A program made the translations under genes and the position numbers. A stretch of DNA of 64,000 nucleotides from Candidatus Aenigmatarchaeota archaeon. Its GTDB lineage: Archaea > Aenigmatarchaeota > Aenigmatarchaeia > CG10238-14 > SCSR01. Below, piece after piece: positions 15,538-40,824 of this stretch (position 1 is the stretch's first letter; each line of letters starts with the position of its first letter). The stretch lies in the NCBI GenBank assembly GCA_038999725.1, contig JAWBWS010000001.1, positions 96,001 to 160,000 on the forward strand. Direction: 5' to 3'. The notes beneath the pieces are model-generated. The model made no database searches. It saw only the letters and a list, made by a program, of their open reading frames with translations, and was not told the origin of the DNA.

Positions 15538-15568
15538 AATTAAAAATTTGAATTTTAAAAAATATAAA

Positions 15569-16471: not shown

Positions 16472-16476
16472 TTTAA

Positions 16477-16923: not shown

Positions 16924-16924
16924 C

Positions 16925-17820: not shown

Positions 17821-17851
17821 ATTTTTCATTTCTCTTTTGCTTAGTAAATAA

Positions 17852-18244: not shown

Positions 18245-18252
18245 TTTCGCAC

Positions 18253-21294: not shown

Positions 21295-21344
21295 AAATTT
21301 TACTTGAACTTTCATGAATATAAGTTTAATTTATTATTTATCTT

Positions 21345-21593
21345 TTAGATCTTTTTTCTAGAAAAGTACAATAGAGCTAGGGAAAAAATGATAAAAAGGA
21401 AAATAAATAGAAACGCTAGAACTTGTACAAGACTCTCAAAATAATAAATAGAAGCAAAAAGTACGTAAAAAGCTGTTAGAAATGATATTATAAAGCTCAC
21501 ATTAGATTGAAAAATCTTAATTTTTCTCAACAATCCATAAAAAAGTAAAAATGAAAGAAGGGGGAGTAAAAATTGAAAGATTGTTTTGATCAT
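21345..21593 (-). CDS. Small membrane protein (LPF..YGLLRK family)
   Basis: LLPLLSFLLFYGLLRKIKIF; ATGA overlap with the upstream gene. Confidence 0.7.
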   Translation of the reverse strand: MIKTIFQFLLPLLSFLLFYGLLRKIKIFQSNVSFIISFLTAFYVLFASIYYFESLVQVLAFLFIFLFIIFSLALLYFSRKKI

Positions 21594-22126
21594 TGGCTTC
21601 TACCTATCCCACCCATGGTTTCTTCATATTTTTTATACCACTCATAATCATGAAGATTTATACCTAACTTTTCGGCTATTGGTTTAATCTTCTCAACCTC
21701 GTTTTTCATCTCTCCTAATAACATTAATTTCTTATTAATATCTTTTTCTGATTCAAATCTTTCCCATATTTTCTTACAATTTTCTACTCCTTCCTCAAAT
21801 TTTTTCTTATCTCCTTTTACTTCCTCTTCATAAAAAGCTACTTTCTTTAGAGCATAATTACCTATACCATATACATACACTAATAAGAAGCTTGCGATAG
21901 TTAAGAAGGTTGCGAGGAAAGGAAGCCATGTTGTAAGGCCCATATAATATAAAGAGGAGATGCTTAAGGCGGAAATGACTAAAGCCAAAAGCAAGTTAAG
22001 TCTTTCAGTTTTTTCTCCAAAAATACTTGATTTTCTTAACAAAGCATAAATCAGTAGAGAAAAAAATAGATATGGTAGGAATATTGAAAAAACAACAGTT
22101 TGGATGGAAAGTCCAAATACTTCCAT
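21590..22126 (-). CDS. Membrane protein (LPY..YALLRKS family) with charged C-terminus
   Basis: LPYLFFSLLIYALLRKSSIFG; probable ATG at 22126. Confidence 0.7.
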   Translation of the reverse strand: MEVFGLSIQTVVFSIFLPYLFFSLLIYALLRKSSIFGEKTERLNLLLALVISALSISSLYYMGLTTWLPFLATFLTIASFLLVYVYGIGNYALKKVAFYEEEVKGDKKKFEEGVENCKKIWERFESEKDINKKLMLLGEMKNEVEKIKPIAEKLGINLHDYEWYKKYEETMGGIGRSQ

Positions 22127-22486
22127 AAAATGTATTTGTGAGAAAGGATAAAAATTGACTTTTGATTGAGACTCCAAAGTTAAAATAATTACTTAAAGTG
22201 TTTTCTGGTATTGAAAAAGTAAGAACACTTGTAAGAAAAATAGTGGCCAAAAAGATTATTTTATTCAGCAACTGGAATGTGGTGTTAATGAATATCAAAT
22301 TCTTTTTCAATCAGCCTTTTATTTCTTCTTTTCTAAAACTTAGTTTAAGCCATTAATAACCCAACTGTTTTTATTTCTCTTCAATATTTACAAAAATTTT
22401 TGTTCATCTTAAACATAAAAGCCCCACAAAATCTAGTTGACAACACAGAAAAGTTTAAATAGTTAACGTTTTAATTTTTTACCAAG

Positions 22487-27604: not shown

Positions 27605-28591
27605 ATGGAAGATGTTAGCCTGGTGCTTGTTATTTGTCTAATAGCTGTTATTGTTATTGGCTGCTACTTAATTTATGAAAGTTTAAAAACCAAGGTTGTT
27701 ATCGAGGTTTCAAAGCCGAGCATACCAAAATTTGCTGATCTCAATTTCTTTTTTGGAACTGAAAGTGAAGAAGGTCTCCCCACACGATTTTTGGATATAA
27801 AAAAAGGATATTTTGAGTTTCCTTTCAATGTTAAAAATTTGTTCAACGAAAAAGTTAGGGTTAAAATCTGTCCAAAAATTGTTACTAAAAGTTTAGATTT
27901 GACATCTTCCATAGAAATTGATTGTTTAGAACTTGAATTGAATAAAGGTGAAGGTAAAAAATTGAATATAAAAATCCCATTCTCTGGAAAAGAAGAAGAA
28001 CTTTTAAATTCAACGAAAACTGTTTTAAGAGTAGAAGTGGAGTATACGGGCCTAATAAGCAGCTTCTGTGATTTGTATTTATTCGTTGGCTACCCATACT
28101 GTGAAGTTTCAGATTCAGCTTCCCTCAAAATATCACCAGACTTAAGACCTAACCCAATAAATTTGGATAAAGATGAAAAATTCTCTGTTTATCTAAAGAT
28201 AAGAAAATTTTCAGAATTCCTTGAACTTGAAAGGGTAGAAATCTTACCAATTGAAACCAAAGTCAGGATAATTTCTTATGGTAAAGAAAGGGTAGAAACA
28301 ATAACCCTTGAAGAAAATTATAGCTCTGAGTTATCTTATGTTGTTTCTTTGCCTGAAGACTACATCTTCTTACATGAGTTCAATGCCCCAAAGATAAGAG
28401 TCGAAGAAGGTGAAAAAAAAGAATACATAAATATAAGATGTGAAGATGAAGCCGTAAAGAAACTTAAGATTTGTGAGCTTAGATTTAAAGATGAAAAAGT
28501 CGATCAAGCATTCAGGAAACTTACCTTAGAATTAAAATTATTTTTCCTAAGCAAAAGATCAATAGAAGAGAATCTGCAGGTAACTAAGTAA
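27605..28591 (+). CDS. Membrane-anchored beta-rich surface protein
   Basis: N-terminal TM helix; FNVKN and VEVEY motifs resembling the upstream gene. Confidence 0.6.
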   Translation: MEDVSLVLVICLIAVIVIGCYLIYESLKTKVVIEVSKPSIPKFADLNFFFGTESEEGLPTRFLDIKKGYFEFPFNVKNLFNEKVRVKICPKIVTKSLDLTSSIEIDCLELELNKGEGKKLNIKIPFSGKEEELLNSTKTVLRVEVEYTGLISSFCDLYLFVGYPYCEVSDSASLKISPDLRPNPINLDKDEKFSVYLKIRKFSEFLELERVEILPIETKVRIISYGKERVETITLEENYSSELSYVVSLPEDYIFLHEFNAPKIRVEEGEKKEYINIRCEDEAVKKLKICELRFKDEKVDQAFRKLTLELKLFFLSKRSIEENLQVTK

Positions 28592-28940
28592 CTTGGCAGT
28601 TACAGCTCTTTAAACAAAGGTCAAAATTCTTGTACTCGAAGAATTCGCAAACTTCTCCAAATGTTGCTTTGTTTATATCAGCATTTCTGTTGTTCGGGTC
28701 TGGTAGCCTTTTGCCTATTTGATCATAAAAGATTCCGCTCTTTTCATATTCTAAGTTTGGCATGTAAGCGTTGATGCATCCTCTTACATTCATTTCTCTA
28801 CAAAGCTCTTGATGCCCTGTTATTCTAAATATCCAAGTTTTAAACGGCCCAAACTGACCGCCAAACAAAGCAATAACAGCTACTGCCACCACTATGATTA
28901 TTACAAGAGCTGCAACTATCCAAAAAGTTTGCTCAGCCAT
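28584..28940 (-). CDS. Pilin-like protein with 6-Cys domain, no basic leader
   Basis: MAEQTF plus helix; Cys pattern shared with 33018-33269. Confidence 0.65.
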   Translation of the reverse strand: MAEQTFWIVAALVIIIVVAVAVIALFGGQFGPFKTWIFRITGHQELCREMNVRGCINAYMPNLEYEKSGIFYDQIGKRLPDPNNRNADINKATFGEVCEFFEYKNFDLCLKSCNCQVT

Positions 28941-28990
28941 GAATAAATTTTAATTTTACTGTAATTTAAATTTAAATTTGTTTGATGAAT

Positions 28991-29404
28991 TTAAGGCGAA
29001 AACCTAAACTTCACAAACTTTGATAAATTTACCTCTTTTTCTAAATCCTTGTAATTATATGTTATCTTACCTTCAACTATGAAAAAATCATCTTCTTGAT
29101 AAGCATTCAAAAATTCAAAATGTGAATTAGAATTTTTTAAATTAAGGGTAATTGTTTTGGATATCTCTTTTACAATATCTCCGTACGAATAACCTCTCCC
29201 TCTACTTTCCAAGCATTCGTTTTCTAAATATTTCCTGAAATAGAATTGGGAATACTCCACTTCATTCACGATTTCAGAATATTTTCTAGATATTGTTGAA
29301 ATTTCTATCTCACTATCCAAAAGCTCACCTAAAAAGTAAAAACCTATAACCATCAAAATACAAACAATGAATATAGCAACTATATAGCCTATTACTCCTT
29401 TCAT
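28991..29404 (-). CDS. Pilin-like protein
   Basis: MKG|VIG plus helix. Confidence 0.75.
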   Translation of the reverse strand: MKGVIGYIVAIFIVCILMVIGFYFLGELLDSEIEISTISRKYSEIVNEVEYSQFYFRKYLENECLESRGRGYSYGDIVKEISKTITLNLKNSNSHFEFLNAYQEDDFFIVEGKITYNYKDLEKEVNLSKFVKFRFSP

Positions 29405-29790
29405 ACCATAACCTCTATTTTTATTTTTTTATTGTCTTCAACTAGTTCGAGAGATGTTTTTTCTTCAGAAACTAGCTTAGGATTTCCTAAAATCTTATCA
29501 GCTACTGTAATTTTATAAGAAGGTAGGACTTTATTTATCTCCGATTCTATTTCAGCTTTATCGATTTTCCCTTCTAAATAATCTAAAATTTTTTCACTCA
29601 TATCAGACTGGGCTATAGCTATAGAAAGTGCTTGGGATTTAAGTGGATTGTAAATTGGTTTATAGATTATGTCAACTTCTATCTTTATTTGTAAGAAAGA
29701 CATGATAACATACAATATGCTACAAAATATTATGAAAATCACTAGGAAAATCACAAAGTTAAATATTTTAGGCAAAAGCTGGCCCTTAAT
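29401..29790 (-). CDS. Pilin-like protein, probable ATT start
   Basis: Frame reads TAG GCT ATT AAG GGC CAG CTT TTG, i.e. (M)KG|QLLP. The track's TTG start at 29775 loses the leader. Confidence 0.7.
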   Translation of the reverse strand: MKGQLLPKIFNFVIFLVIFIIFCSILYVIMSFLQIKIEVDIIYKPIYNPLKSQALSIAIAQSDMSEKILDYLEGKIDKAEIESEINKVLPSYKITVADKILGNPKLVSEEKTSLELVEDNKKIKIEVMV

Positions 29791-30193
29791 AGCCTACCAC
29801 CATTTTCCCAAATTTGAATTTTCCATTTGAATAAATCGTAATTGGAAGTGTAATCTTAACTCTATTCTTTGATGATCCAAGCCTCCATATGGTTTTAAAA
29901 TCAGTTATTTCTACTTCAAAGTAATTTGAATCAAAGCAAAGATCTCCTCGATTCAATTTTTTTTCATCAAAAATGCCTCTGTAAAAATTTCCAGCCTCAT
30001 CTTCATATATCAAACATTTATTGCCCATGATTGAGTTAATTCCATCAAAAATTATTCTGTTATCAATGGTGTCCTTAATTTTTATGTTATAAACTGTAAA
30101 CAGTAAGAATAAACCAAGTAAAAAGGCTATTGTTAAAAGATTTTTAAGTATGTCTATCATTTCTTCCGGTATTATGAAAGCTTGTCCCTTCAT
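29786..30193 (-). CDS. Pilin-like protein
   Basis: MKG|QAF plus helix; ATGA overlap; paralogue of the vWA pilin scaffold. Confidence 0.8.
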   Translation of the reverse strand: MKGQAFIIPEEMIDILKNLLTIAFLLGLFLLFTVYNIKIKDTIDNRIIFDGINSIMGNKCLIYEDEAGNFYRGIFDEKKLNRGDLCFDSNYFEVEITDFKTIWRLGSSKNRVKITLPITIYSNGKFKFGKMVVGY

Positions 30194-30570
30194 TCTATCC
30201 AAACCTCATCTCCCACTTTCTTTATGGTTATAAATGTATTAGGACAATTTGAGCTGCTGTCCTTAATTTTGACATAATTTGGAGAAATTATTTCATTGGA
30301 ATAAGTGTCATCTCCTATTCTCACAATAACTTTACCTTCAGAAATTTTAACATCACAAGATTTTCCAACAAGAATTTTTGACGAAACATTAAAAGTTGAA
30401 GATGAAATGGAAGAAATTACACTTGCCAAGGTTTCTGAAAAAAGTTTACTGTTCATCCAATTCCTTTTGAATAGGGATAAACCAACAATGTAAGAAGAGT
30501 ATATTATTAACAAAAGAATAACAATGTTAGCAAAAAACTGTAAAAATTGGATTAACAAAGAGCCTTTCAT
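30190..30570 (-). CDS. Pilin-like protein
   Basis: MKG|SLL plus helix; resembles the N-terminal domain of the protease pilin. Confidence 0.75.
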   Translation of the reverse strand: MKGSLLIQFLQFFANIVILLLIIYSSYIVGLSLFKRNWMNSKLFSETLASVISSISSSTFNVSSKILVGKSCDVKISEGKVIVRIGDDTYSNEIISPNYVKIKDSSSNCPNTFITIKKVGDEVWIE

Positions 30571-30573
30571 AAT

Positions 30574-33015
30574 TTAATTTAGGCTTGATATTTTAAAGTC
30601 TATTAAAGTTGGGTTGTTTTTGTAAACATCCGGATAAATTAACTGTGTTTCTCTGTAGACATCTATGAGAAGCCCTACAAATCCTGAAACTACTGAGCAA
30701 AGGCCAGGGAATTTGGGTCCAAAGCCTAAACATGTTTTTATCACATCAGGAATGGTTAAAGGTGCGAGTGTTCCTCCTGAGAGAAGTGTTCCACCTACAG
30801 CACAAAGTGCTGAAGAAACACACCTTGACAAATATTCTCCGGCTTCTGTTCCAATATACCAGTTTACAAGACCGGCTGTTGCATAACAGTAATTCTTTTT
30901 GTTGTGAGCCTCCGGCATATAGGGCTCAACATATATAGTGCCCCCCTCTTGATAAATTCTAAGTTTTGCATAACATGGGCTTACCAAGTAAAATCTTGGG
31001 TCTGGTGCTACTATGCTACCTCTCTTCAACTTTATTGAATCTATGCCTTTAGCTTGACAAGCTTGTAATGGATAAGCCCTAACACAAGCACCTAATTGAA
31101 CACAAAGAGCTCCATCTTGGCAAGATGTTTGACAATAGCCTTCTGGTGGTTTCTCTCTAGACGGATAGCCATAATAAGAAAAATACCTATCCCAATAAGT
31201 TGCTCCTAATGGAGTATAAAGATCCTGAGTTCTAAGAATAGCATAGCCTAAAGTTCCTCTTGAAAATATTTCTACATCTTCTTTCAATCTTAATCTTTTT
31301 TCGTTAAGTAGATCCCATAATTTTTTAGCTTCTTCAGGATCTTTAAAAACATCATTATAATCCTCTTTAACAATATTTTCTGTTCTATAAGAAAGAATAT
31401 TGAGGAAATCCTCTCGACTTGGTAAAGGTCTCAAGAAGATATCTGACTCTATTAAAAGCTCTTCATATAAGTTCAGGGCCTCCTCGTCCAAACTGTCAAT
31501 CAACTTCTCTAATTTTGATCCTTTCTCCATAACTACAAAAAACAGGCCTTGACTCGCTTCTTCCTCCAATCTAGCCAACCTTAATGAGATTATTCTCAAT
31601 GCTTCTTCTTCATCAGCAACCTTAACCCCAGCACGTTTAAGAACATCTAATGCTTCACTTGGATTTTCTTCAAAATATTTTTTAAGATGCTTAGCCATAA
31701 TTGAAAATGAGTCAGAGTCTATAACTTTATCGCTCATTATCTTTTCTTCTAGCAAAGCAATTTTTTCCTCAAAAGGTAAAACAACTTTTTCTTTTAGTTT
31801 AGTTAATAGGCTTTTCTTATCAGCTATAACTTCTTTAATCCCGGTAATTTTATAATCTTCCCTCTCATATACAATCGTAAAAATTCCATCAACTCTATTC
31901 GGATATCCTTTTTCTTTAAGGTATTCTTCTAATGGATTTATTATGTTTTCTAACGCTTTTTTAGAATCTTTTTTAGCAATAATTTTCCCTGTTACTTCAT
32001 CAAACTCCCAGCCTTTTTCTTCTAACAATTCTTTAAGTTCAAAACTATCTTCTATTTCATCTTTAAAATAGCTCAAAATATGCTCTTTTATTTCACTAAT
32101 CTTCGTAGAAAATTTCATCTTAACTGTACCAATTTTATCTTTTAGGTAAGCATTAACCTTTGGTGTAACAAATTTTTGTAAAGTAACTTTAGCCACATCT
32201 GCGCCTATACCAACTATTACCCCATCTTTCAAACAATCTCCTAGAGTTTTATCTTGAGTTACTAAGCAAAACACAGTGTACCCGGCTGTAACTTTTCCTA
32301 TGAATTTCCCCTCGCTTATAACAAGTTTCCCTCCCTTTACCACAATTTTCTTAGCTTTTCCTAAATTTTCTACTATTTCATCAACATCATTTTCTAAAGC
32401 ATTCCATACTCTTCTCAATTTGGTAAGAGTTTGGGGAGAGATTGACTCTATTTTATCTTTAATCTTGTTAGCAATTTTTCTTCCAAGTGTAATAGTCCCT
32501 TTTTCTCCAGCTTCTGCTGCTGCCTTCAAGCCGAAAATATCCATACCCAAAAACATGGAATCTAAAGTAACAGTTAACAAAAAGTTAGAGCTCCAAGGCA
32601 AATCTTCCGACCAAGGAATGAAAATTGAGGTCGCTGTTCCTGTAACACCTTGGCCAAATTGGTATGGTGGTTCTGGAGGGAAATATTCCCAATAAACTTT
32701 ATAGTAAGGATCATTATACAACTGTATAGGAATTTCAAGATCTGGCCCGCCTAAACCAATTTTTTTCTTAACCCAATTTATTCCATTTTCAATCTCATCC
32801 TTTAGGCTTGCTATTCTGTTCTGTTCAAGTTCAAATTTCAACTCTTTTTCTTGTCCAGTTTCACAAACATACTCTATAGCTTGATATAAATTGTAACCAT
32901 TTCTTTCAGCTATTTTATCACTTGAATTATGGATAAAAAACCACCAAATTCCAAACCCCACGATTATCGCTATTATTCCGCCTACGATTAAAAATCTTAA
33001 AGTGAATTCATTCAT
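30574..33015 (-). CDS. Giant (~813 aa) pilin-like protein with a long helical insert and Gly-rich hydrophobic segments
   Basis: N-terminal TM helix, central Lys/Glu-rich helical region, Cys-rich C-terminal domain, AVGGTLLSGGTLAP. Confidence 0.6.
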   Translation of the reverse strand: MNEFTLRFLIVGGIIAIIVGFGIWWFFIHNSSDKIAERNGYNLYQAIEYVCETGQEKELKFELEQNRIASLKDEIENGINWVKKKIGLGGPDLEIPIQLYNDPYYKVYWEYFPPEPPYQFGQGVTGTATSIFIPWSEDLPWSSNFLLTVTLDSMFLGMDIFGLKAAAEAGEKGTITLGRKIANKIKDKIESISPQTLTKLRRVWNALENDVDEIVENLGKAKKIVVKGGKLVISEGKFIGKVTAGYTVFCLVTQDKTLGDCLKDGVIVGIGADVAKVTLQKFVTPKVNAYLKDKIGTVKMKFSTKISEIKEHILSYFKDEIEDSFELKELLEEKGWEFDEVTGKIIAKKDSKKALENIINPLEEYLKEKGYPNRVDGIFTIVYEREDYKITGIKEVIADKKSLLTKLKEKVVLPFEEKIALLEEKIMSDKVIDSDSFSIMAKHLKKYFEENPSEALDVLKRAGVKVADEEEALRIISLRLARLEEEASQGLFFVVMEKGSKLEKLIDSLDEEALNLYEELLIESDIFLRPLPSREDFLNILSYRTENIVKEDYNDVFKDPEEAKKLWDLLNEKRLRLKEDVEIFSRGTLGYAILRTQDLYTPLGATYWDRYFSYYGYPSREKPPEGYCQTSCQDGALCVQLGACVRAYPLQACQAKGIDSIKLKRGSIVAPDPRFYLVSPCYAKLRIYQEGGTIYVEPYMPEAHNKKNYCYATAGLVNWYIGTEAGEYLSRCVSSALCAVGGTLLSGGTLAPLTIPDVIKTCLGFGPKFPGLCSVVSGFVGLLIDVYRETQLIYPDVYKNNPTLIDFKISSLN

Positions 33016-33017
33016 CT

Positions 33018-33269
33018 TTAACACCCACAAAATTTTTTGCAGTCATCCAACTTCAAGTTATTTCTCTCACAAATTTCTACAAAACTTTTTGAATTGATGA
33101 CAACTGCACCATCATCACAATAGTTTTTAATAAGTTCGAGGCAAGCTCTTTCCAATAATGTAGCTTTTTCATCCTGGCTATCGCTTATTATTTTTAAGAT
33201 AAAAACAACAGCTGCTATGATAACAAGTGAGAAAATTATCAAAACAATCAGGTATGGAATTTTTTCCAT
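33018..33269 (-). CDS. Small pilin-like protein with 6-Cys domain
   Basis: MEKIPY plus helix; C..C..C..CxxxCxC pattern. Confidence 0.7.
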   Translation of the reverse strand: MEKIPYLIVLIIFSLVIIAAVVFILKIISDSQDEKATLLERACLELIKNYCDDGAVVINSKSFVEICERNNLKLDDCKKFCGC

Positions 33270-33285
33270 AAAATAATTTTAGTTT

Positions 33286-33426
33286 TTAAAGTAAAAGATA
33301 TTGTTTAATGAGACCAAGCAGCTTCTCTTTACCTAGGGTTATGAAAAAGAACGCAAACAGAAGCAAAAAAACAAGCAAGATTATGTAAAATAAATATTTG
33401 AAAGGTAGGCTCACTCCTTTCATCAT
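33286..33426 (-). CDS. Mini-pilin, 46 aa (not in ORF track)
   Basis: Hand translation: MMKG|VSLPFKYLFYIILLVFLLLFAFFFITLGKEKLLGLIKQYLLL; ATGA overlap. Confidence 0.75.
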   Translation of the reverse strand: MMKGVSLPFKYLFYIILLVFLLLFAFFFITLGKEKLLGLIKQYLLL

Positions 33427-33560
33427 TTCCACGGTTTTGGAAGCTTAAAATTTAGTATAGCTTCTAAGAAATTAGTGTATTTAAACATGAAAAATATCAC
33501 GAAAATTATTATCGCAAGAATTATAATAGAAAGTATTTGTATCCATTCATCTTCACTCAC
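33423..33560 (-). CDS. Mini-pilin-like single-TM protein, 45 aa (not in ORF track)
   Basis: GTG start directly after the upstream TAA: MSEDEWIQILSIIILAIIIFVIFFMFKYTNFLEAILNFKLPKPWK. Confidence 0.7.
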   Translation of the reverse strand: MSEDEWIQILSIIILAIIIFVIFFMFKYTNFLEAILNFKLPKPWK

Positions 33561-33719
33561 TTAACCACCAAAAATTCTCTTCAAGAATTCTGGTATGTTC
33601 AAGATTTGTTCAAGTGTGTTAACTCCAGACTCTTTTATTTTCAAGTAAAAATAGATTACGACTAAAAGCATTAACACAACTATCACTATTATCACAATTG
33701 TATTAAATGGTAACTCCAT
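33561..33719 (-). CDS. Mini-pilin-like protein, 52 aa (not in ORF track)
   Basis: MELPFNTIVIIVIVVLMLLVVIYFYLKIKESGVNTLEQILNIPEFLKRIFGG. Confidence 0.75.
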   Translation of the reverse strand: MELPFNTIVIIVIVVLMLLVVIYFYLKIKESGVNTLEQILNIPEFLKRIFGG

Positions 33720-33738
33720 AATTCAATTTTTCGATTCT

Positions 33739-33933
33739 TTAAATAAATACTTCACAGAGCTCTGCCTTACCAAAAAGTTTACCTATGGTGAGTAAACATA
33801 TCTCCTTTGCTGTCAAACTAAAAACATTTGAATGAAACATTGATGAAAGCAAAATTACAGCTATTATTACGGTTAATATGATGGCTATGAGAATAACGAT
33901 CCAATTTAAAGTTAGTTCAATTGCACCTTTTAT
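33739..33933 (-). CDS. Mini-pilin, 64 aa, probable ATA start (not in ORF track)
   Basis: (M)KG|AIELTLNWIVILIAIILTVIIAVILLSSMF...CLLTIGKLFGKAELCEVFI. The ATA overlaps the upstream TAA, and an in-frame stop lies two codons earlier. Confidence 0.7.
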   Translation of the reverse strand: MKGAIELTLNWIVILIAIILTVIIAVILLSSMFHSNVFSLTAKEICLLTIGKLFGKAELCEVFI

Positions 33934-34112
33934 GGTTTACCACCTTTGATTACTCTTCTCAAAAATTCTTCGGTTGTATTCCATATTTTCCCAGATTTTA
34001 TATTTTCAATTAATTCTTTTGAAGTAAAAATTAGGATTCCTAAAATTACTATAGCAACGAGTAGGAAAAGGATTATTATGTAAATGTAGTCTATTGTACT
34101 GATTCCTTTCAT
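33930..34112 (-). CDS. Mini-pilin, 60 aa, Flp-like
   Basis: MKG|ISTIDY (D5-Y6, compare Flp E5-Y6) plus helix. Confidence 0.8.
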   Translation of the reverse strand: MKGISTIDYIYIIILFLLVAIVILGILIFTSKELIENIKSGKIWNTTEEFLRRVIKGGKP

Positions 34113-34231
34113 TTAAAAACGACCTCTACTGGAAATTTTTGAAGGTATGTGATCACGAAAAGTACTAAAATAAAAAAGATTATCAACCCTATAATTATTG
34201 AGAGCACGACTTTTGCTATCCTTTCTTCCAT
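34109..34231 (-). CDS. Mini-pilin-like single-TM protein, 40 aa (not in ORF track)
   Basis: MEERIAKVVLSIIIGLIIFFILVLFVITYLQKFPVEVVFK; starts right after the platform stop and overlaps the next gene by ATGA. Confidence 0.7.
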   Translation of the reverse strand: MEERIAKVVLSIIIGLIIFFILVLFVITYLQKFPVEVVFK

Positions 34232-36262
34232 TCACGACACTTCAAATATACTTATTATCATTCCAGAGAGTGAAACATAAATAATAATTGAAATTACTAC
34301 AAAAAGAATCGTCGATACCAACAAAATTTTAGAAGTTTTATCAAGCCAAACAACAAGATCAAAACCAGTTTCTAAACCAACTATTAAAATTCCAGAAATT
34401 ATTGAAACTTCTATTAGATAGATGCCAATGACCAACTGAAAAATTGCAGGCGATACCCTTGAAGCTTTCCAAATATCAAAAATTGGTAGGCCAATTGAAG
34501 GGATTCCAGAAACTTCTTCCGGAAGTATTACCCTACCTAAACTTAGAGAGAGTGAGATCAAAATCCCCATTATTATTAGACCAAGGGCTGTTGCTACACC
34601 AGTTACAATTGGGTTTAAGAAGAAACACATGAACTTGATTGTAGATACATTATCAGAAACTAGATCTTCTATTTTGTTTTGAAGTGAAGACAGTTTTTTC
34701 AAATATCTGGAAATGGTACTTAAAGCTTGAGAAAGATAAATAGAACCTCTTGATGATATATCAACTATTATCCTGAAAACTGATGTAAGCAAAACAGAAT
34801 TATATTTCCTAAGGATTCCTGTTTTCTTGTTAAACAATGCTGAATTCAAGCTTTCTCCAAGCAATATGCTATCTTTCAACTCTTTAAACAGCTCTTCTAT
34901 TTCAAAAACTTTTGATCTTGTAGAAAGGGAAATTATTGATTTTTCAAATGGCGCACCTATTTTCAAAGAATGTGAAATCTGAAGCAATACAGAATCTATC
35001 TCTGATTCTATTCTCCTTGTTTTTTTCATTTTCTCTATTATGCTGTTTGTATAAAAAATGATAGGTAGGGTGAAAATTAGGACAAGTGCAACCAGTAAGG
35101 TTGCACTCATAATAGCTGGTGTCTTCAAATCACTCATCAGTGAGCTACATTCTTGGGCATCCAAGTTTAATTTTTCTGGTTTCTTCTCAGGTTCAAATTT
35201 TTCGTTCATCCAATTCGAGCAAAGTTTAAAGTTCTCTGTATGAGAATATATTGGGGGAACAAAAATGATGGAAATTGTCAGCGCTAAAATCAAGAGTAGG
35301 GGAAAGATATTTGCTTGTTTGCCAAAAAAATTGAAAGTTAAGATCGGTTTATCCAACTCTATTGGTGAAGTCACCAAAGGTCTCCCGTTTATCACAAACA
35401 TTATCAATATCAGAAGAATTGTTGGTAAGAAAATATCATATATGAAAAACACTCCTATGATGTCAAGAAGTTCTGGCAAAAATATCGTCATTAACGGGAT
35501 TAAAGTAAGGCCAATAACAGGAAGCACTAACCCTAGAACCATTATAGCAGTTGTTGGGAGCTTTAATTCTCTCGCATATTTTTCCATTCTTTGGTAGCTG
35601 TCTTCTATGACCAAATTTGTAGCTTCATCTAATAGTCTCTCGCCTTGATAAGGGTTCTTTGAGTAAGATATTAAAAGCTTAAGTGCTTCGCTGAACTCTC
35701 TTGCCTCAACATACCATTTTTCGGCAACTTCATTTAGACCATCTTCAAAATTGTAAATTTTCTGTGAAATGAAATCATGTAGAATCTTGCCCAAATCTTC
35801 CCTTATAGGACCCTTTAGATTTTTGTAAGCTAAAAGCACTGCATTTTCAAGATTTGGAAGTTGAGAGAGGGAGATAACCATATAAGTTATACAATGTGCC
35901 ATCTCTGAGGATGCTTGAGCACGAACAATTTTCACTCTTAAGTATGGATAATAGTAAATCGAAAACGAGAAAAATCCAAACATGAAGAATAATGGGAAAA
36001 AATAGGAAAAGTTGATGAAAAAAGAGATTAGAAAAATTGCCAAAATGGAAAAAATGAAGAAGAGAATAGCTGCAGATATGTTGGAAGTTGGTGGTATCTT
36101 GAGTAGAGAGAATTTTATAATCCTCTCTTCTTCTTTCATTTTTCTTTCGGTCAATTTTATTCTTAAAATCTTGTAAGAAAAATCGCAAAATAACTCATAC
36201 AAACTCTTCTTTCTTTCTCTTTCAATCTCTTTATAGATTTCCAACACTTCTTTTGATACCAT
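34232..36262 (-). CDS. Type IV pilus membrane platform protein, copy 2 (fused TadB/TadC, ArlJ-like)
   Basis: Directly downstream of the ATPase; YMVISLSQLPNLENA and SLKIGAPFE repeats with TM clusters. Confidence 0.85.
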   Translation of the reverse strand: MVSKEVLEIYKEIERERKKSLYELFCDFSYKILRIKLTERKMKEEERIIKFSLLKIPPTSNISAAILFFIFSILAIFLISFFINFSYFFPLFFMFGFFSFSIYYYPYLRVKIVRAQASSEMAHCITYMVISLSQLPNLENAVLLAYKNLKGPIREDLGKILHDFISQKIYNFEDGLNEVAEKWYVEAREFSEALKLLISYSKNPYQGERLLDEATNLVIEDSYQRMEKYARELKLPTTAIMVLGLVLPVIGLTLIPLMTIFLPELLDIIGVFFIYDIFLPTILLILIMFVINGRPLVTSPIELDKPILTFNFFGKQANIFPLLLILALTISIIFVPPIYSHTENFKLCSNWMNEKFEPEKKPEKLNLDAQECSSLMSDLKTPAIMSATLLVALVLIFTLPIIFYTNSIIEKMKKTRRIESEIDSVLLQISHSLKIGAPFEKSIISLSTRSKVFEIEELFKELKDSILLGESLNSALFNKKTGILRKYNSVLLTSVFRIIVDISSRGSIYLSQALSTISRYLKKLSSLQNKIEDLVSDNVSTIKFMCFFLNPIVTGVATALGLIIMGILISLSLSLGRVILPEEVSGIPSIGLPIFDIWKASRVSPAIFQLVIGIYLIEVSIISGILIVGLETGFDLVVWLDKTSKILLVSTILFVVISIIIYVSLSGMIISIFEVS

Positions 36263-36266
36263 CCAA

Positions 36267-38504
36267 TCATCCTTTAATCTTTTCTTTAAACCAATTCAAC
36301 CACTTCTCGTAAATCATCTTTGAATCTAAACCACCAACTTCTTGCCTAACTTCCTCTGAAATTATGTGAAACATCTCATTGCTTTCAACCACAAAAGCAG
36401 CTTCAAGTACGTCGTCTCTGTTCAATTCCCTAGCAAAATCAACCATAGTTTGTTTTATCTTAGCCCTCAACAAAATATTGTCCCAAACTGCATCCCAATT
36501 ACCTCTCCATTCTCTCACACGCTTAGCGATTTCGTCCAAGACTTGACTCTCACCATTTATCAAGACATCAGTCGGCTTTAGCTTATCTTCTTTTGCCGAA
36601 TACTCCATTAGTGTGACAAAACCTCCTTCATCCATTGGGTCTTGTCTCCAATGCTTTCTCACTTCTGTAAGCTCTGTTACACGCCTAAACCTTCTCAAAC
36701 CATCTGGAGTCTTGAGCAAATTACAAATTGTTATCAAGTCTAAAGCCTTGAAACTTGTTGGTGGTACTTTCAAATCATTCACAACCCTATCAAAAACACC
36801 GTAAGCCGATTCACCGTGAATTGTGCCTGCAACCAAATTGGCTAGGGCGCCGATTCTCATTGCCTCAAATAAAGCTTGTGCTTCTATTGACCTTACTTCT
36901 CCTATAATCAAAACAGAATCACCAAGTCTCAAAGCAGTTCTTAAAGCCTCTTCTGCTGGGAGTTCAGCTTCAACTCTTGTTATAACTGAACGAGATTTTA
37001 GCCTTTCTATATTGTAGCCTAAATTCATCAACTGCACTGCAGGAAGCTCTAAAGTATCTTCCACAAGGCAAAGGCGGAACTTTTTCATAACCTCGACCAT
37101 TATTGCCCCTAACAAGCTTGTTTTACCAGAACCTCGACCACCAGCAACAAGCAAACTTCTTCCTCCGTCAATTATAAAACTCATAAGACCAGCATACAAA
37201 GGATCGAAAAACCCGACTTTGATGAAAAGTGGAAAAGTCCATGGTTTTTCCCTATGTCTTCTGAAAGCATAGCCTAACCCATAAGGAGATAAAGTTCTTG
37301 TTATCGCCGCAACTCTTGCCCTTCCTCCAGGTATCAAAAGTTCTGTGTCCAAAACAGGATTAGCTTCATCTAAAGGTCTTCCTGAGTAAAGTCTGAACCT
37401 TGTAGCCCAAGACTCCGCATCTTCTTTGGTTGGTATGAGGTTTGTCTCACATTCTTCAAACTCAGTATGATTTATGAAGACTGGAGTTGAGCCTATGGGT
37501 GAATTTATGTAAATATCTTGGATTTTTTCATCAGCAAGCAAAACTTCTAAAATACCAAAACCTGCTGTATATCTTGTTAAAATTTCTGCCAACTCTTCGA
37601 GCTCTTGAGAAGAAAGCTCAATCCCCCTACTTCTGGCTATATCCCTTATTAAATCTCTTCCTATGCTCATGAAGACTTCCCTTGCTTTTTCTGGTTCGGT
37701 GAATTCTCTTTCCGAAGGTTTATGCTCAGCAAGGTATCTTCTGGCTAGGTCTAAAATCATATATTTCTCTTCACTCAATGTGAACTCGGGTGGAACTATG
37801 TGGTAAACATATCTAACTTTCCCTGGAACTTTGAAAATTTCGACAGAAGTACTACCAACAAAATATTTTTGAATTGAAACCCCACCTTTTGGAGGTATGA
37901 GCATGTAACGTGTGAACATGAAATTTGGTCTTATTAGGGGGAAGAAAATCTTCCTATAGAAGCTTCTGTCTCCTGGTTTGAATTGTAAATTGCTTTGCTT
38001 AGCAATTTGAATTAAACTGCACTTTGATAAAATTTCTTCCATTGGTAATAGAACATTGTTTAAATATTCTGTGTGACAAGCCTTCATGTTTGATGCAGCT
38101 TTTTCTATCATCTCCTTTTCCCTAGCAATCATTTTCTGGAGCATGAAGTAAGCCCCTATCGGATCTTTCCTCAAGACCTGTGTTACTAAAAATTGAAGTT
38201 CAGAAAGTCTTTTTGGAAAGAGTTTCTCACATTGTTGAGGACCAAATTTGGCTATTGAGATAAGCTTATCTTCATTCAAGATCTTGTTATAAGCGACTGC
38301 TATTTCTTTGAGAAGTTTAACTTGCTCATAGTCATACTCCCTTTCCCTCGTCTCAACCAAGACAACTCTTTCAGCAGCTTTGGCTTCGAGCAAGATATCA
38401 ATAACAACAGCCATACAGGCTTCAGAATCTTCTATGCTTGGCTCTATTGCCCAATTCATTGCATTAATTCTAACCGTATTCTCAACAACTTCATATTCAA
38501 CCAT
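36267..38504 (-). CDS. Type IV pilus/secretion ATPase (TadA/VirB11/ArlI family)
   Basis: Walker A GGRGSGKTS, Asp box VEDTLEL, Walker B LIIGEVR, His box GTIHG. Confidence 0.95.
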   Translation of the reverse strand: MVEYEVVENTVRINAMNWAIEPSIEDSEACMAVVIDILLEAKAAERVVLVETREREYDYEQVKLLKEIAVAYNKILNEDKLISIAKFGPQQCEKLFPKRLSELQFLVTQVLRKDPIGAYFMLQKMIAREKEMIEKAASNMKACHTEYLNNVLLPMEEILSKCSLIQIAKQSNLQFKPGDRSFYRKIFFPLIRPNFMFTRYMLIPPKGGVSIQKYFVGSTSVEIFKVPGKVRYVYHIVPPEFTLSEEKYMILDLARRYLAEHKPSEREFTEPEKAREVFMSIGRDLIRDIARSRGIELSSQELEELAEILTRYTAGFGILEVLLADEKIQDIYINSPIGSTPVFINHTEFEECETNLIPTKEDAESWATRFRLYSGRPLDEANPVLDTELLIPGGRARVAAITRTLSPYGLGYAFRRHREKPWTFPLFIKVGFFDPLYAGLMSFIIDGGRSLLVAGGRGSGKTSLLGAIMVEVMKKFRLCLVEDTLELPAVQLMNLGYNIERLKSRSVITRVEAELPAEEALRTALRLGDSVLIIGEVRSIEAQALFEAMRIGALANLVAGTIHGESAYGVFDRVVNDLKVPPTSFKALDLITICNLLKTPDGLRRFRRVTELTEVRKHWRQDPMDEGGFVTLMEYSAKEDKLKPTDVLINGESQVLDEIAKRVREWRGNWDAVWDNILLRAKIKQTMVDFARELNRDDVLEAAFVVESNEMFHIISEEVRQEVGGLDSKMIYEKWLNWFKEKIKG

Positions 38505-38549
38505 ACAATTAATTTATCTATTCCACAAAACAAATGTTTATTGATAAGT

Positions 38550-38933
38550 ATGGTTACAAAAGAAGCTGAAATTGAGAGTTTTACAAGTGAAATTGTTAGA
38601 AGAATGAATGAGTATAGCAATAGAATAAAGAATGTCGAGTTGAGAGTAGAAAGAATGGAGAGTAGAATAACAAGTATAGAGGAGACGGTTCTCGCCCAGC
38701 TCAATAATTTGAAGCTGAGCTTAGAAAAACTATCACAAAAATTTTCCTCTATTTCAGAAAAATTGGGGAATATTGAAAGTGAAATCTTAAGGATAAATAA
38801 AGAGCTGAGCAAAACTGCACTGAAAAGTGACATTAAGAAAATAGAAGCTTTCATAGATGTTGTTAACCCCATAACCTCAAAGTTTGTTACAAAGGAGGAG
38901 TTAGAAAGAGCTTTGAAAGAAATGGAAAAGTGA
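38550..38933 (+). CDS. Coiled-coil protein divergent from the pilus ATPase
   Basis: ATG at 38550; heptad pattern. The track's upstream extension overlaps the ATPase and is unlikely. Confidence 0.7.
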   Translation: MVTKEAEIESFTSEIVRRMNEYSNRIKNVELRVERMESRITSIEETVLAQLNNLKLSLEKLSQKFSSISEKLGNIESEILRINKELSKTALKSDIKKIEAFIDVVNPITSKFVTKEELERALKEMEK

Positions 38934-38978
38934 GATAAATTTGTATTTAAAAACAGAAATTAATAATAAGGGGAAAAT

Positions 38979-39632
38979 ATGCCTTTACCTTTTTTACAAA
39001 AACCTGAAGTTGTGAAAAAAGGTGTGCCTATAGAGAGAATAAGGGAGCTTTCCTCAAGGGGTTTTTCAGAAGTTGAGATAATTGACATTTTAAGAAAAGA
39101 GGGCTATTCCCCCGAAGAAATAGATGCTGGTTTAACAGAAGCTTTGAAAGCGGGGGTTAGTGGCATATCCCCTCCAAAAGAAGGTCCTGTGAGCTTACCA
39201 AAGCTAGAGGAACTGCAACCAAAACAAACTCCAATAGAGGTTCCTGAGACTTCTTTGCCTCAAGACTACTTTTATTACACTTCCCCTGCTTATGCTTCAC
39301 AACAAGCATATCCTACAGAGGAATATATAGAATATATTGTAAAAGAAAGAGTTGCCGAGCTTGATGATAAATTGAAAGAATTCACAATAAAATATTCTGA
39401 ATTGGAAAAAAGATTTGCCGAACTTCATGAACAATTAAATGAGCTTACAAAAACCAAAACAACCACTGAGCAACTCATTCTCACCAGGTTGGATGAATTC
39501 AAATCTATTCTTGGTGATTTGGAAACAAGGATAGCTGGCTTAGAAAAAGCTTTCAAGGATGCTTTGCCTGCATTGATAGAGAGTGTGAGAGCTTTAAGCG
39601 ATGTTGTACAAAGGATGAAGAAACTTGTTTAA
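38979..39632 (+). CDS. Coiled-coil protein with small N-terminal helical domain and Pro-rich linker
   Basis: RGFSEVEIIDILRKEGYSPEEID followed by a C-terminal coiled coil. Confidence 0.7.
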   Translation: MPLPFLQKPEVVKKGVPIERIRELSSRGFSEVEIIDILRKEGYSPEEIDAGLTEALKAGVSGISPPKEGPVSLPKLEELQPKQTPIEVPETSLPQDYFYYTSPAYASQQAYPTEEYIEYIVKERVAELDDKLKEFTIKYSELEKRFAELHEQLNELTKTKTTTEQLILTRLDEFKSILGDLETRIAGLEKAFKDALPALIESVRALSDVVQRMKKLV

Positions 39633-39670
39633 ACTTAAATTTTTAGAAATTAAATAAAAAATTGGAGAGA

Positions 39671-40267
39671 ATGAATAGAATTTTCAATTTTTTGATCACC
39701 ACTCTTTTCTTCTTGATAGTATTTTCTTTTCCAGTTCTGGCACAAAACCCATTTCTTGACATGGTCAAAAGCTTCAGAATTAGTGGCGTCTTTGATATTT
39801 TCATATTCATCCTCTTCTTTGTCGCTTTCTATGCAATTTTGACAAAATCAAAAGTCCTTGGAAGCAACCCTGGAATAAATGGTATTGTTGCTCTGATTGC
39901 AGCCTTTTTCATTTCTCTTTATTCTACATTTACCGGCTTTAGTCTAATTGAGCCTCTCTCAAGATTTTTCACTCAAGCAAGTGTGATAGGAATTATGTTT
40001 ATCATGGCCCTTGTTATAGCAAGTGTTTTTTATCCAGATTTGCCAAAAATGCTTGGAGAATATATAAAGGGGCCAGTAATTCTTTATGTGTTGATTCCGT
40101 TGGCTCTAGCACTACTTATAACCTCTAGAACAATTTGGGTCCTTTGGGCCGGCTACAAAGTCACACCTGGAGCAGGATTAAGTGGTGATGTACCGATATT
40201 AATAATTGGTTTATTAATCTTTGGCGTCCTATTGATTATAGCAGGAATAATAGGAGGTAAGAAATAA
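39671..40267 (+). CDS. Membrane protein (YAILTKS family)
   Basis: FILFFVAFYAILTKSKVLG..NGIVALIAAF. Confidence 0.7.
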   Translation: MNRIFNFLITTLFFLIVFSFPVLAQNPFLDMVKSFRISGVFDIFIFILFFVAFYAILTKSKVLGSNPGINGIVALIAAFFISLYSTFTGFSLIEPLSRFFTQASVIGIMFIMALVIASVFYPDLPKMLGEYIKGPVILYVLIPLALALLITSRTIWVLWAGYKVTPGAGLSGDVPILIIGLLIFGVLLIIAGIIGGKK

Positions 40268-40824
40268 TGGAAAGCCCATTTGAGCTCATGATTTTGAGGT
40301 TGCAACAACTTGGTTTCTTCACATTTATACTCCCCTTCATTTTTATGTCAGCTGTCCTATATGGCTTATTAAGAAAATCTCAAATTTTTGGACCAGCAGA
40401 AAAAAATGTTGTAATAAATGCTGTTATAGCAATGACTGCAAGTTTCATGGTCTTGGCAGCTCCAGTAATAGCTGGAATAAACATTGAACAACAACTTGCC
40501 AAATTCTTCATTCAGAGCATGATAGTTGTTCTCGTGCTAGTTGTTGCTGTCCTTGCCGTTGGGATGTTTTTTGGACCAGATTTACCTAGCAAGATTCAAG
40601 AAAAACTTGGTAGCAAATATCTTGGTGGGTTGCTGATTGCTTCTATTCTCATTGGTTTAACCTTATTTGTCACAAGCGGTCTGATGAATGTGTTCTTTCC
40701 AGAAGGATTTGAGGGAATTGGAATCTCTGAAGATGTTGTGATTTCGATAGCGACAATAGTTTTTCTTATAGTAATAGTTGTGTTGATAGTAGTTTTCGTT
40801 AGTCGAGAGGAGAAGAAGAAATAA
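40267..40824 (+). CDS. Membrane protein (LPF..YGLLRKS family)
   Basis: ILPFIFMSAVLYGLLRKSQIFG..NAVIAM. Confidence 0.75.
   Translation: MESPFELMILRLQQLGFFTFILPFIFMSAVLYGLLRKSQIFGPAEKNVVINAVIAMTASFMVLAAPVIAGINIEQQLAKFFIQSMIVVLVLVVAVLAVGMFFGPDLPSKIQEKLGSKYLGGLLIASILIGLTLFVTSGLMNVFFPEGFEGIGISEDVVISIATIVFLIVIVVLIVVFVSREEKKK

Follow-up and report, generated by a model that had tools for sequence, protein, structure and literature searches.

Seven small conserved genes beside the platform gene of an Aenigmatarchaeota type IV filament locus: candidates for minimal pilin-like subunits

For DPANN archaea, which depend on physical host contact, type IV pilus-like loci are leading candidates for establishing it. 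In type II secretion (T2SS; GspE-F-G-H-I-J-K) and competence (ComGA-GG) operons, genes for an ATPase and a platform are followed by genes for major and minor (pseudo)pilins; these systems often build a short pseudopilus, not a long fibre. Bacterial Flp pilins have the processing and assembly motif G↓xxxxEY (here and below, the arrow marks the leader cut), and Class_IIIsignal is the N-terminal motif family of the Epd-like small pilins of methanogens. For the archaeal system 1/Epd, the accessible parts of two surveys (PMC13705601; PMC4858521) treat major pilins of small size (~70 aa) and without a head as accepted. The family arCOG06620 is present in some Aenigmarchaeota in the accessible portion of the PMC13705601 supplements, where the record prefixes of the relatives studied here were not found. 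Makarova et al. 2016 were unable to identify the cognate pilins of one clade of nanoarchaeal ATPases (PMC4858521, accessible part). The accessible text of Hamm et al. 2024 (PMC11291902) describes conserved type IV pilus-like loci, composed of CCP-CpaF-TadC, in cluster 2 DPANN archaea, with Aenigmarchaeota among the lineages.

Here we describe a locus in a stretch of 64,000 nucleotides (the window) from the ~730-kb (729,769 bases) genome of a hot-spring archaeon of the Aenigmatarchaeota (DPANN). A first-pass annotation of the window had claimed that the apparent gap after the platform gene is tiled by seven mostly stop/start-coupled minus-strand ORFs, each with one hydrophobic helix. All seven, here called s1 to s7, were present at the lengths and positions claimed (Table 1). 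The coupling was borne out by 0-nt abutments and 4-nt overlaps, with spacers before s4 and s7, and each product contained a single hydrophobic segment, 18-23 residues long. An ORF list restricted to ATG/GTG/TTG starts and a minimum of 60 aa would retain just two of them, those of 60 and 83 aa. The s4 and s7 start codons are each preceded, 21-27 nt upstream, by an AT-rich, TATA-like stretch.

Table 1. Features of the locus, in window positions, and their junctions with the preceding gene
Feature	Position	Strand	Product	Junction with preceding gene
Coiled-coil gene pair	38322..39632	plus	gene at 38979-39632 and ORF ending at 38933	divergent from ATPase gene
ATPase	36267..38504	minus	745 aa; TadA/FlaI/VirB11 superfamily secretion ATPase; operon's first gene	
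Platform	34232..36262	minus	676 aa; TadC/FlaJ-like membrane protein	
Mini-ORFs s1-s7	33018-34231	minus	seven ORFs between platform gene and 813-aa gene	
s1	34109-34231	minus	40 aa	0 nt; start abuts platform stop codon
s2	33930-34112	minus	60 aa	ATGA overlap, 4 nt
s3	33739-33933	minus	64 aa; ATA start, no ATG/GTG/TTG	ATAA overlap, 4 nt; ATA of s3 start inside
s4	33561-33719	minus	52 aa	spacer, 19 nt
s5	33423-33560	minus	45 aa; GTG start	0 nt
s6	33286-33426	minus	46 aa from first ATG; 48 aa from upstream GTG	ATGA overlap
s7	33018-33269	minus	83 aa	spacer, 16 nt
Large Cys-rich protein	30574..33015	minus	813 aa	2 nt; ATG 2 nt past s7 stop
Five medium pilin-like genes	28584..30570	minus	126, 138, 124, 137, 118 aa; N-terminal TM helix each	

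The neighbouring genes confirm that the cassette lies within a type IV filament locus, with the ATPase and the TadC/FlaJ-like platform in the same operon. The ATPase matched the Pfam T2SSE model (E 1.9e-14) and, both under the curated cut-offs, the NCBIfam TadA-family (3.6e-36) and FlaI (5.3e-35) models. The platform gave a weak Pfam T2SSF match (0.0047, under the cut-off), and no relative of solved structure was found for it by sequence. Its full-length orthologues share 76-79% identity within the genus and 32-39% in other genera. The coiled-coil gene pair also adjoins the ATPase gene in two other loci (L027 and L037).

A lack of conservation and of codon-level constraint, named in the first-pass annotation as the outcome that would speak against it, is clearly not what we observed. 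All seven ORFs were intact and collinear in five of five same-genus loci, which amount to four distinct sequence sets (L001 is identical to L003). Pooled dN/dS was 0.09-0.14 (seven pairs, 378-380 codons). Between the window and L005, the codon-position differences were 55/30/128 and dN/dS was 0.08 for s1, 0.16 for s2 and 0.07 for s3; the values for s4, s5 and s6 were 0.10, 0.11 and 0.08. We also scanned the whole genome for ORFs of 35-95 aa that have a hydrophobic stretch (at least 14/18) and lie outside ORFs of at least 110 aa. Among the 31 found, runs of at least two same-strand neighbours occurred only twice, both times at this locus (four and two ORFs; s3 was missed because of its ATA start). 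The mini-ORF array exceeds chance expectation.

That s1-s7 are untranslated, their conservation stemming from a constrained non-coding region or RNA, is scarcely credible. It is true that s3 has no canonical start codon in this genome and that no RNA run covering the stretch was among the seven runs listed, all of which are hot-spring DNA contigs (three possibly the source of this DNA). However, the constraint is frame-specific and third-position changes dominate, all frames stay open even where platform identity falls to 30-39%, the motifs are conserved at the peptide level, and relatives are called as proteins by NCBI's pipeline. At the s3 start position all five relatives have ATG; the ATA is identical in contigs of X1-X3, which come from one study and possibly from the source DNA and so are not independent. 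On this comparative evidence, s1-s7 are established as genuine genes under constraint.

Of 19 loci, 17 have an array of 4-8 mini-ORFs directly beside a platform gene of the same subtype, and two are truncated by contig ends. In family f5, too, the array neighbours the platform gene, but in convergent orientation on the opposite strand. Nine of 40 relatives encode a full-length platform at 32% identity or above, and the same nine give strong s3-family matches. Judged from these gene neighbourhoods, the linkage of the mini-gene cassette to the platform subtype is demonstrated, and in the genomes compared the type IV filament (T4F) machine with the cassette is found in one order of Aenigmatarchaeota. 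Within the genus the locus is patchy, being absent from G004, G005 and G007 (85-91% completeness). In 37 genomes outside the order, the N-terminal part of the s3 profile matched within ORFs of 70-210 aa, at 19-25 bits only. These matches are suggestive of ordinary pilin N-termini, and we left them out of the family.

Three KG leaders had been claimed for the array, and three were present: s2 (MKG↓ISTIDY), s3 ((ATA)KG↓AIELTLNW) and s6 (MMKG↓VSLPFKY) begin M(I)KG. This class III leader is absent in the window from s1 (MEERIAK), s4 (MELPFN), s5 (MSEDEW) and s7 (MEKIPY). The one TM helix is followed by a conserved KFPVEVVFK tail in s1, a basic amphipathic tail in s2, a tail bearing a pair of invariant Cys (14 residues apart) in s3, a conserved ILNIPEFLK.IFGG tail in s4, a basic tail ending KLPKPWK in s5 and a short basic tail in s6. 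In s7, a long helix leads into a conserved six-Cys head of ~35 residues that ends CKKFCGC (C43, C51, C81 and C83 invariant in 14 sequences). In the first-pass annotation's suggestion of a headless Flp-like filament, 'headless' is wrong for s7 in view of this head, and has to be further qualified for s3, with its conserved Cys...Cys tail. The AF2 model of s7 (mean pLDDT 80.2) has a helix at residues 4-48 and a small Cys-rich head; this predicted outline, one 45-residue N-terminal helix plus a small head, is pilin-like. The AF2 model of s3 has three helices (mean pLDDT 78.4).

We counted leaders by reading the cluster listing, which holds 124 members from the 19 loci. A prepilin-type leader ([KR][GAS] directly before the helix) was present in 55 members, absent in 68 and ambiguous in one. 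Examples are MKG↓VIELNW, MKA↓TIEL, MKS↓SVEI and MRG↓ISLPVN, the last of which, like MKG↓ISLPVN, begins s7 orthologues in other genera. Leadered and leaderless members numbered 5/11 for s1 (n=16; MKG leaders such as MKG↓VIESH against leaderless ME.. starts), 28/14 for s2+s3 (with the ambiguous one in addition), 10/21 for s4+s6, 12/8 for s7 and 0/14 for s5. Canonical archaeal class III leaders thus occur in orthologues of s1, s2/s3, s6 and s7. Among clustered members, s4-type and s5 proteins were never leadered, and the listing held no leadered mini-protein for the f5 (g21) loci L025, L026, L028 and L036. In leaderless forms the start Met lies approximately at the leader cut site, and most of them retain a Glu at 2-3 residues from the N-terminus: MEVNW, MIEFSLR and MPIELSLR match KG↓VIELNW, and MEERI and MEQST match KG↓VIESH. 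The genome encodes an A24 prepilin peptidase (PF01478; G000:C3:76942-77274; 38.2 bits, over the cut-off). As s1, s4, s5 and s7 have no leader in this window, the peptidase cannot process those four. Its presence is not specific evidence for this locus, because ordinary Pilin_N proteins are found elsewhere in the genome.

Comparison of the families by hhalign gave 95.5% for s3-s4, 95.7% for s4-s7, 88.0% for s3-s7, 86.8% for s4-s6 and 81.2% for s6-s3. The reversed-sequence controls for related pairs gave 1.0-15.4% (s3-s4, 3.5%; s4-s7, 15.4%; s4-s6, 1.1%). In contrast, s5 did not rise above its reversed controls (45.6% vs 52.9% with s4; 28.8% vs 29.2% with s7). The method is noisy on such hydrophobic peptides, since one reversed control (s1 vs reversed s6) reached 70.1%. 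Set against their controls, these scores show s3, s4, s6 and s7 to be mutually related paralogues at the level of sequence. By BLASTP clustering, s2 groups with the s3 family (cluster 0). We propose that s2, s3, s4, s6 and s7 at least would be diverged paralogues within a single family of minimal type-IV-pilin-like proteins, to which s1 probably also belongs. The first-pass annotation had offered a diversified set of subunits as one of two readings; the mutual relatedness of four families and the leaders in the orthologues named above fit this well.

The genes downstream of the array encode proteins with similar beginnings. The 813-aa protein has a pilin-like N-terminus (MNEFTLRFLIVGG...), and its orthologues (714-986 aa) were found in 13 further loci. 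Four of these large orthologues carry class III leaders, MKG↓LTISAQ in L027 and L037 and AAKG↓FTISAQ in L039 and L041. MKG leaders are present in three of the five medium proteins, and in L044 all five medium counterparts have [KR]G leaders. The last medium gene (28584-28940) falls in the Cys-rich s7 family (cluster 2). The large and medium proteins have the same N-termini as the mini-proteins, leadered in other genera. No Pfam or NCBIfam family matched the 813-aa protein and no Pfam family matched the five medium ones; the ESM Atlas returned nothing useful for the 813-aa protein (Atlas model pLDDT 0.35). By its sequence features, the 813-aa protein is a candidate giant pilin-like adhesin.

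Pfam searches with s1-s7 at E up to 10 gave weak hydrophobic matches only, and none to Pilin_N (PF07790), Class_IIIsignal (PF04021) or Flp_Fap (PF04964). None of these three models matched in this locus. Genome-wide, Pilin_N matched only on contig C2, no Class_IIIsignal match was over the cut-off, and Flp_Fap had no match at E up to 1, with a control match to the model obtained in Caulobacter. Membership of the bacterial Flp family is not borne out by these searches. The D5-Y6 pair reported for s2 is present (ISTIDY after the G), and its Flp-likeness amounts to a resemblance in two residues: positions 5-6 are DY in L005 and L008, and DH in L001, L002 and L003. Pfam gave no meaningful family for 36 s3-family and 14 s7-family members, and NCBIfam gave nothing above noise for the small, medium and large proteins. 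We rejected the weak Pfam matches (Insulin_TMD, Holin_BlyA, DUF7287, DUF7318, TadE at 0.36 and others), all under cut-offs, as hydrophobic-helix noise. Fold searches neither support nor exclude a pilin fold. Foldseek found no PDB match to the s3 model at E up to 10, the best PDB match to the s7 model had an E of 3.2, and VIA-align against 48,161 chains reached a best Z of 4.9, with generic long helices and coiled coils only. In the ESM Atlas, the clusters nearest s7 were Aenigmatarchaeota proteins at 0.86-0.88, which we treat as leads only.

We lean towards the view that the cassette supplies a DPANN T4F machine with a set of mini pilin-like subunits, for which we infer cleavage, extraction, filament formation, a division of roles and host attachment as follows. 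A single operon would provide the ATPase, the platform, the seven mini-proteins, the giant pilin-like protein and the five medium pilin-like proteins. Each mini-subunit would consist of a very short N-terminal segment, a long hydrophobic helix and a 10-45-residue tail or mini-head, and in most of them a Glu would lie 2-3 residues from the predicted mature end. The leadered s2, s3 and s6 would insert N-in and be cut after [KR][GAS] by the A24-type prepilin peptidase, and platform and ATPase would lift both the cut proteins and their leaderless paralogues out of the membrane. The product would be a short pseudopilus or thin pilus with a core of mini-subunits; the 813-aa and medium pilin-like proteins may form its tip or decorations, probably for host-cell attachment.

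Not every member of the cassette looks like a prepilin. The charges flanking the helix favour an N-out/C-in orientation for s5 (-3 on the N-side, +3 on the C-side) and, weakly, for s4 and s1, which is the opposite of a prepilin. M1, E3 and D4 are shared by all 15 s5 sequences compared, and from such features s5 is probably not a prepilin. It is possible, though we doubt it, that all the mini-proteins are accessory integral-membrane subunits that never leave the membrane, where they would encircle or stabilise the platform or link it to the envelope, the KG starts being incidental or vestigial. In role they would then resemble the single-pass proteins that serve for alignment or as stators in other type IV filament machines. 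By the positive-inside rule, the conserved basic or amphipathic C-tails of s5, s4 and s1 would be cytoplasmic, and the consistent lack of leaders in s5 and in the f5 mini-proteins listed, the strict platform linkage even in rearranged operons and the translational abutment of s1 on the platform gene all agree with such a role. Yet canonical leaders recur across genera in four of the families, the Cys pairs after the helix in s3 and s7 suggest an extracytoplasmic tail, s4 is related to s3, s6 and s7, and the N-terminal module is common to the large and medium pilin-like proteins. A complex prediction for platform (17-row alignment) and s5 (15-row alignment) scored 0.00, which is evidence neither way. 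Within the mini-pilin reading that we prefer, s5, with its acidic N-terminus and basic C-tail, would more likely be a membrane-resident small accessory subunit of the platform.

The mini-proteins might also be cargo, that is, hydrophobic peptides exported or presented by the T4F machine that insert into the host membrane, for example as a pore or fusion bridge. The organism belongs to the DPANN archaea and has a genome of 730 kb, the peptides barely exceed one membrane helix, and the locus is patchy, as accessory interaction genes often are; DPANN T4P-like loci have been proposed for host interaction (PMC11291902, accessible part). We nevertheless consider cargo very improbable: no similarity to a toxin, holin or bacteriocin family rose above noise, selection is uniformly and strongly purifying instead of diversifying, and 7-8 distinct families in fixed order fit stoichiometric assembly better.

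A bolder form of the mini-pilin reading, which we think rather unlikely, is that these are the first 'leaderless pilins'. In a lineage of DPANN archaea the start codon of mini-pilin genes would have been moved repeatedly onto the prepilin cut site, and the subunits, mature from birth, would need no peptidase to assemble into a thin, entirely helical filament or conduit that has no heads, carries the 813-aa adhesin as its cap and serves the symbiont for contact with, or bridging to, its host. Should such repeated, position-exact leader loss be confirmed, it would call into question the rule by which type IV filament subunits require prepilin processing. If this reading is true, the cassette would supply filament subunits that the surveys published on type IV pilus-like loci of DPANN archaea leave unnamed in their accessible parts. 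More generally, a cassette of 40-80-aa pilin-like genes beside the platform gene offers concrete candidates for DPANN filament subunits, and several of these genes are so small that common gene-calling thresholds can miss them. The accessible parts of PMC13705601, PMC4858521 and PMC11291902 do not describe such a cassette, and the terms 'leaderless pilin', 'headless pilin' and 'mini-pilin' were not found in the literature searched.

The CCP-CpaF-TadC loci likewise have coiled-coil genes beside the ATPase and a TadC-type platform (PMC11291902, accessible part); the likeness is one of gene arrangement. A figure legend in that source gives filament proteins (FlaF, PilA) for locus 1 only, of two DPANN loci. 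With T2SS and ComG the locus shares its operon logic and a translationally coupled row of different pilin-like genes with distinct conserved roles. However, the T2SS/ComG subunits are 100-350 aa long, have globular heads and all carry cleavable leaders, whereas those described here are 40-83 aa long, many are leaderless, and they are followed by the 813-aa and five medium proteins; a sequence relation between mini-proteins and T2SS/ComG pseudopilins was not detected. Bacterial Flp/type IVc (Tad) pilins are similar in being 40-80-aa one-helix precursors encoded in operons with TadA/TadB-C type motors, and the acidic-aromatic pair at +5/+6 of s2, alone among the seven, resembles the Flp motif. 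Unlike Flp, the present proteins have a 3-residue archaeal-type leader and belong to an archaeal multi-paralogue cassette, and the conserved acidic residue is at +2/+3 in most families, not at +5, with none in other families. The Epd/system 1 pilins (EpdE-type, arCOG06620, Methanococcus maripaludis) are also archaeal and no longer than ~70 aa; they have a class III leader, a single hydrophobic helix and little or no head, and a TadA/TadC-type ATPase and platform assemble them (PMC13705601; PMC4858521, accessible parts). In contrast to Epd-type pilins, over half of the members here are leaderless and Pfam Class_IIIsignal matches none of the mini-proteins. In the accessible parts of the same surveys (PMC13705601; PMC4858521), the major pilin genes of Epd typically stand alone and system 1 has a split platform, whereas here one 676-aa platform is followed by 7-8 different mini-genes.

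The genome that holds the window (729,769 bases, nine contigs) encodes a secretion ATPase of the TadA/FlaI/VirB11 superfamily, a TadC/FlaJ-like platform protein, seven small ORFs (s1 to s7; 40, 60, 64, 52, 45, 46 and 83 aa, the number and sizes reported in the first-pass annotation), a large protein and five medium-sized proteins in a single tight minus-strand row. Starting with the platform/s1 junction, the spacings are 0, −4, −4, +19, 0, −4 and +16 nt, followed by +2 nt before the large gene.

Coordinates of the pilus-type loci and neighbouring genes in the window
Feature	Position	Strand	Remarks
Secretion ATPase, 745 aa	36267-38504	-	Pfam T2SSE 1.9e-14; NCBIfam TadA-family 3.6e-36 and FlaI 5.3e-35 (both NCBIfam matches below cut-offs)
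Platform protein, 676 aa	34232-36262	-	Weak T2SSF match
Seven small ORFs, s1 to s7	33018-34231	-	
s2 stop/s3 start overlap	33930-33933	-	ATAA
Cys-rich protein, 813 aa	30574-33015	-	14 Cys; hydrophobic segments at the N-terminus and near the C-terminus
Five proteins of 118-138 aa	28584-30570	-	N-terminal hydrophobic helix each
Two coiled-coil proteins	38322-39632	+	Diverge from the ATPase gene
Polytopic membrane proteins	39662-40824; 20401-22177		Common ...Y(A/G)LLRK... segment
Second pilus-type locus	12475-20367	-	
Second, paralogous platform gene	18253-20367	-	30% identical to the first

The seven ORFs are genes, as the first-pass annotation had proposed. They were intact, collinear and of near-equal length in five of five same-genus loci (L001, L002, L003, L005 and L008; platform identity 76-79%); the L001 and L003 peptides are identical, so these loci amount to four distinct sequence sets. 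Codon-level constraint was evident: the pooled dN/dS of the seven ORFs was 0.09-0.14 in seven pairwise comparisons (Nei-Gojobori, 378-380 codons; dS was saturated in several of them), and individual ORFs gave 0.07-0.17 between the window and L005, where 55, 30 and 128 differences fell at codon positions 1, 2 and 3. The single high value (0.71, s7, L002 versus L001) was based on four changes. Genome-wide, only 31 ORFs of 35-95 aa outside long ORFs contained a strongly hydrophobic 18-residue window, and at least two of these were same-strand neighbours in the s1-s7 locus only. Relatives of the mini-ORFs are annotated as 'hypothetical protein' by the NCBI pipeline; thus, the genes are hidden from an ORF track with a 60-aa limit, not from all annotation. 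A search for RNA data returned none.

Six of the seven ORFs start with ATG or GTG. s3 lacks ATG, GTG and TTG, leaving ATA as its sole possible start. The s2/s3 junction is ATGA in three of five relatives (L001, L002 and L008) and a 2-nt gap in L005. Judged from these sequences, one G-to-A change at the junction would have retained the s2 stop (TGA to TAA) while giving s3 its ATA start. The frame of s3 remains intact and constrained (dN/dS 0.07 versus L005). The same letter was found at this start in contigs from three runs, possibly the source of the window DNA.

The distribution of the genes follows that of the platform. The s3-family profile A2, built from 36 sequences, matched 48 clusters in a collection of 5.8 billion proteins; all named ones were 'hypothetical protein, Ca. 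Aenigmatarchaeota', and none of the 48 carried a Pfam domain. Only 30 representatives among 1.84 billion matched it at E ≤ 0.001. At this threshold 57 of 370 genomes of the phylum matched, of which only 20, all from three families (f1, f4 and f5) of the window's order, gave strong full-length matches (46-85 bits); the remaining 37 gave 19-25-bit matches confined to the N-terminal portion of A2. Of 40 relatives, nine had a full-length platform at ≥ 32% identity, and these are the nine with strong s3 matches. Within the genus, three of seven other genomes (G004, G005 and G007; 85-91% complete) had neither, indicating that the locus is accessory and that cassette and platform subtype travel together. 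An array of four to eight mini-ORFs directly adjoined the platform gene in 17 of 19 loci (11 further ones included), the other two being cut by contig ends. This adjacency is kept in genus g21 of family f5, where the seven mini genes run towards the platform 3' end from the opposite strand, the ATPase gene is not adjacent, and the large and medium genes point away from the platform gene. At the f5 locus L025, where the array forms a separate convergent operon, a 102-aa protein is encoded ahead of it (9291-9599, minus strand), which may be a small DNA-binding regulator, given its Cys-x2-Cys ... Cys-x2-Cys near the C-terminus.

The small proteins of these 19 loci, compared all together by BLASTP, fell into five clusters. 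We scored as a leader any [KR][GAS] immediately before the hydrophobic helix, as read from the clustered sequences. By this criterion, 55 of 124 members had a leader, 68 had none and one was ambiguous (with/without: s1, 5/11; s2 and s3, 28/14, plus the ambiguous one; s4 and s6, 10/21; s7 and the last medium gene, 12/8; s5, 0/14). In the window, s2, s3 and s6 are leadered; s1, s4, s5 and s7 are not. The leadered N-termini (MKG/VIELNW, MKA/TIELS, MKS/SVEIS, MRG/ISLPVN and MKG/VIESH; slash, predicted cut) are, in sequence, textbook archaeal class III signals. Leaderless relatives start no more than about one residue from the predicted cut and retain the nearby Glu: compare MEVNW, MIEFSLR, MPIELSLR and MPLEISLK with KG/VIELNW, MEERIAK and MEQSTIK with KG/VIESH, and MELPFN with KG/VSLPFK. 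An A24 prepilin peptidase is encoded in the genome. Over half of the clustered proteins cannot serve as peptidase substrates.

Profile-profile comparison supports a common ancestry of s3, s4, s6 and s7 (probability 81-96%, versus 1-15% for reversed-sequence controls of the same pairs). A value of 70% for one reversed control shows that such comparisons are noisy for peptides of this kind. s1 was borderline (52-70%), and s5 did not rise above the reversed-sequence controls. The flanking charge of s5 (N-side −3, C-side +3) is the reverse of that of a prepilin, and s4 and s1 lean likewise. In s3 the helix is followed by two invariant Cys with a spacing of 14 residues, and the predicted structure has three helices (mean pLDDT 78.4). 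Four Cys are invariant in s7, which ends in C..CGC and is predicted as a 45-residue helix with a small head (mean pLDDT 80.2). Fold searches returned generic helices only.

The 813-aa protein and its orthologues (714-986 aa) begin with an N-terminus of the mini-protein kind, leadered in four of them (MKG/LTISAQ and AAKG/FTISAQ); at locus L044 all medium proteins are leadered. We found no known domain in the 813-aa protein, and its Atlas model was poor (pLDDT 0.35).

At the second locus, the platform gene is followed by ordinary-sized pilin-like genes (144, 180, 134, 148 and 305 aa), four of five with KG/xALE-type leaders (the 144-aa gene has none), and then by one encoding a Cys-rich secreted protein of 1020 aa; a mini-ORF array and an adjacent ATPase gene are absent. 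The ...Y(A/G)LLRK... proteins adjoin both window loci and occur near the cassette in an f5 genome (L028, 10690-11219), and look like a recurring unnamed neighbour family. The coiled-coil gene pair has the same position in another genus (L027, 2491-3729).

ATPase-platform-pilin gene rows occur in other type IV filament operons. The best-supported reading of the sequences is that the cassette encodes minimal, diverged type-IV-pilin-like subunits belonging to this type IV filament machine; s5 is probably an accessory component that stays in the membrane. If the row works as those others do, a pseudopilus or thin pilus would have the mini subunits as its core or base and would carry the large and medium pilin-like proteins at its tip or as decorations. 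The first-pass annotation had suggested a headless Flp-like filament or a diversified subunit set. This is partly supported: a diversified set of pilin-like subunits fits the data, s3, s4, s6 and s7 being related to one another; the likeness to Flp does not extend to the Flp and Pfam pilin families, as the Pilin_N, Class_IIIsignal and Flp_Fap models gave no match to s1-s7 or elsewhere in the locus.

The terms 'leaderless pilin', 'headless pilin' and 'mini-pilin' were not found in the literature searched, and such a cassette is not described in the portions seen of the 2016 (PMC4858521) and 2026 (PMC13705601) surveys, with supplements covered by name only. The arrangement of coiled-coil protein, ATPase and TadC-type platform genes resembles that described for DPANN archaea by Hamm et al. 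2024 (PMC11291902), and our coiled-coil proteins may correspond to those of these published pilus-like loci; the figure legend there names filament proteins for one DPANN locus only. The mini-proteins would work like the headless Epd/Flp-type pilins described in PMC13705601 and PMC4858521. Unlike Epd/Flp-type pilins, the cassette is a fixed multi-paralogue set with frequent, position-exact leader loss, and it is of genuine interest to the cell biology of DPANN archaea.
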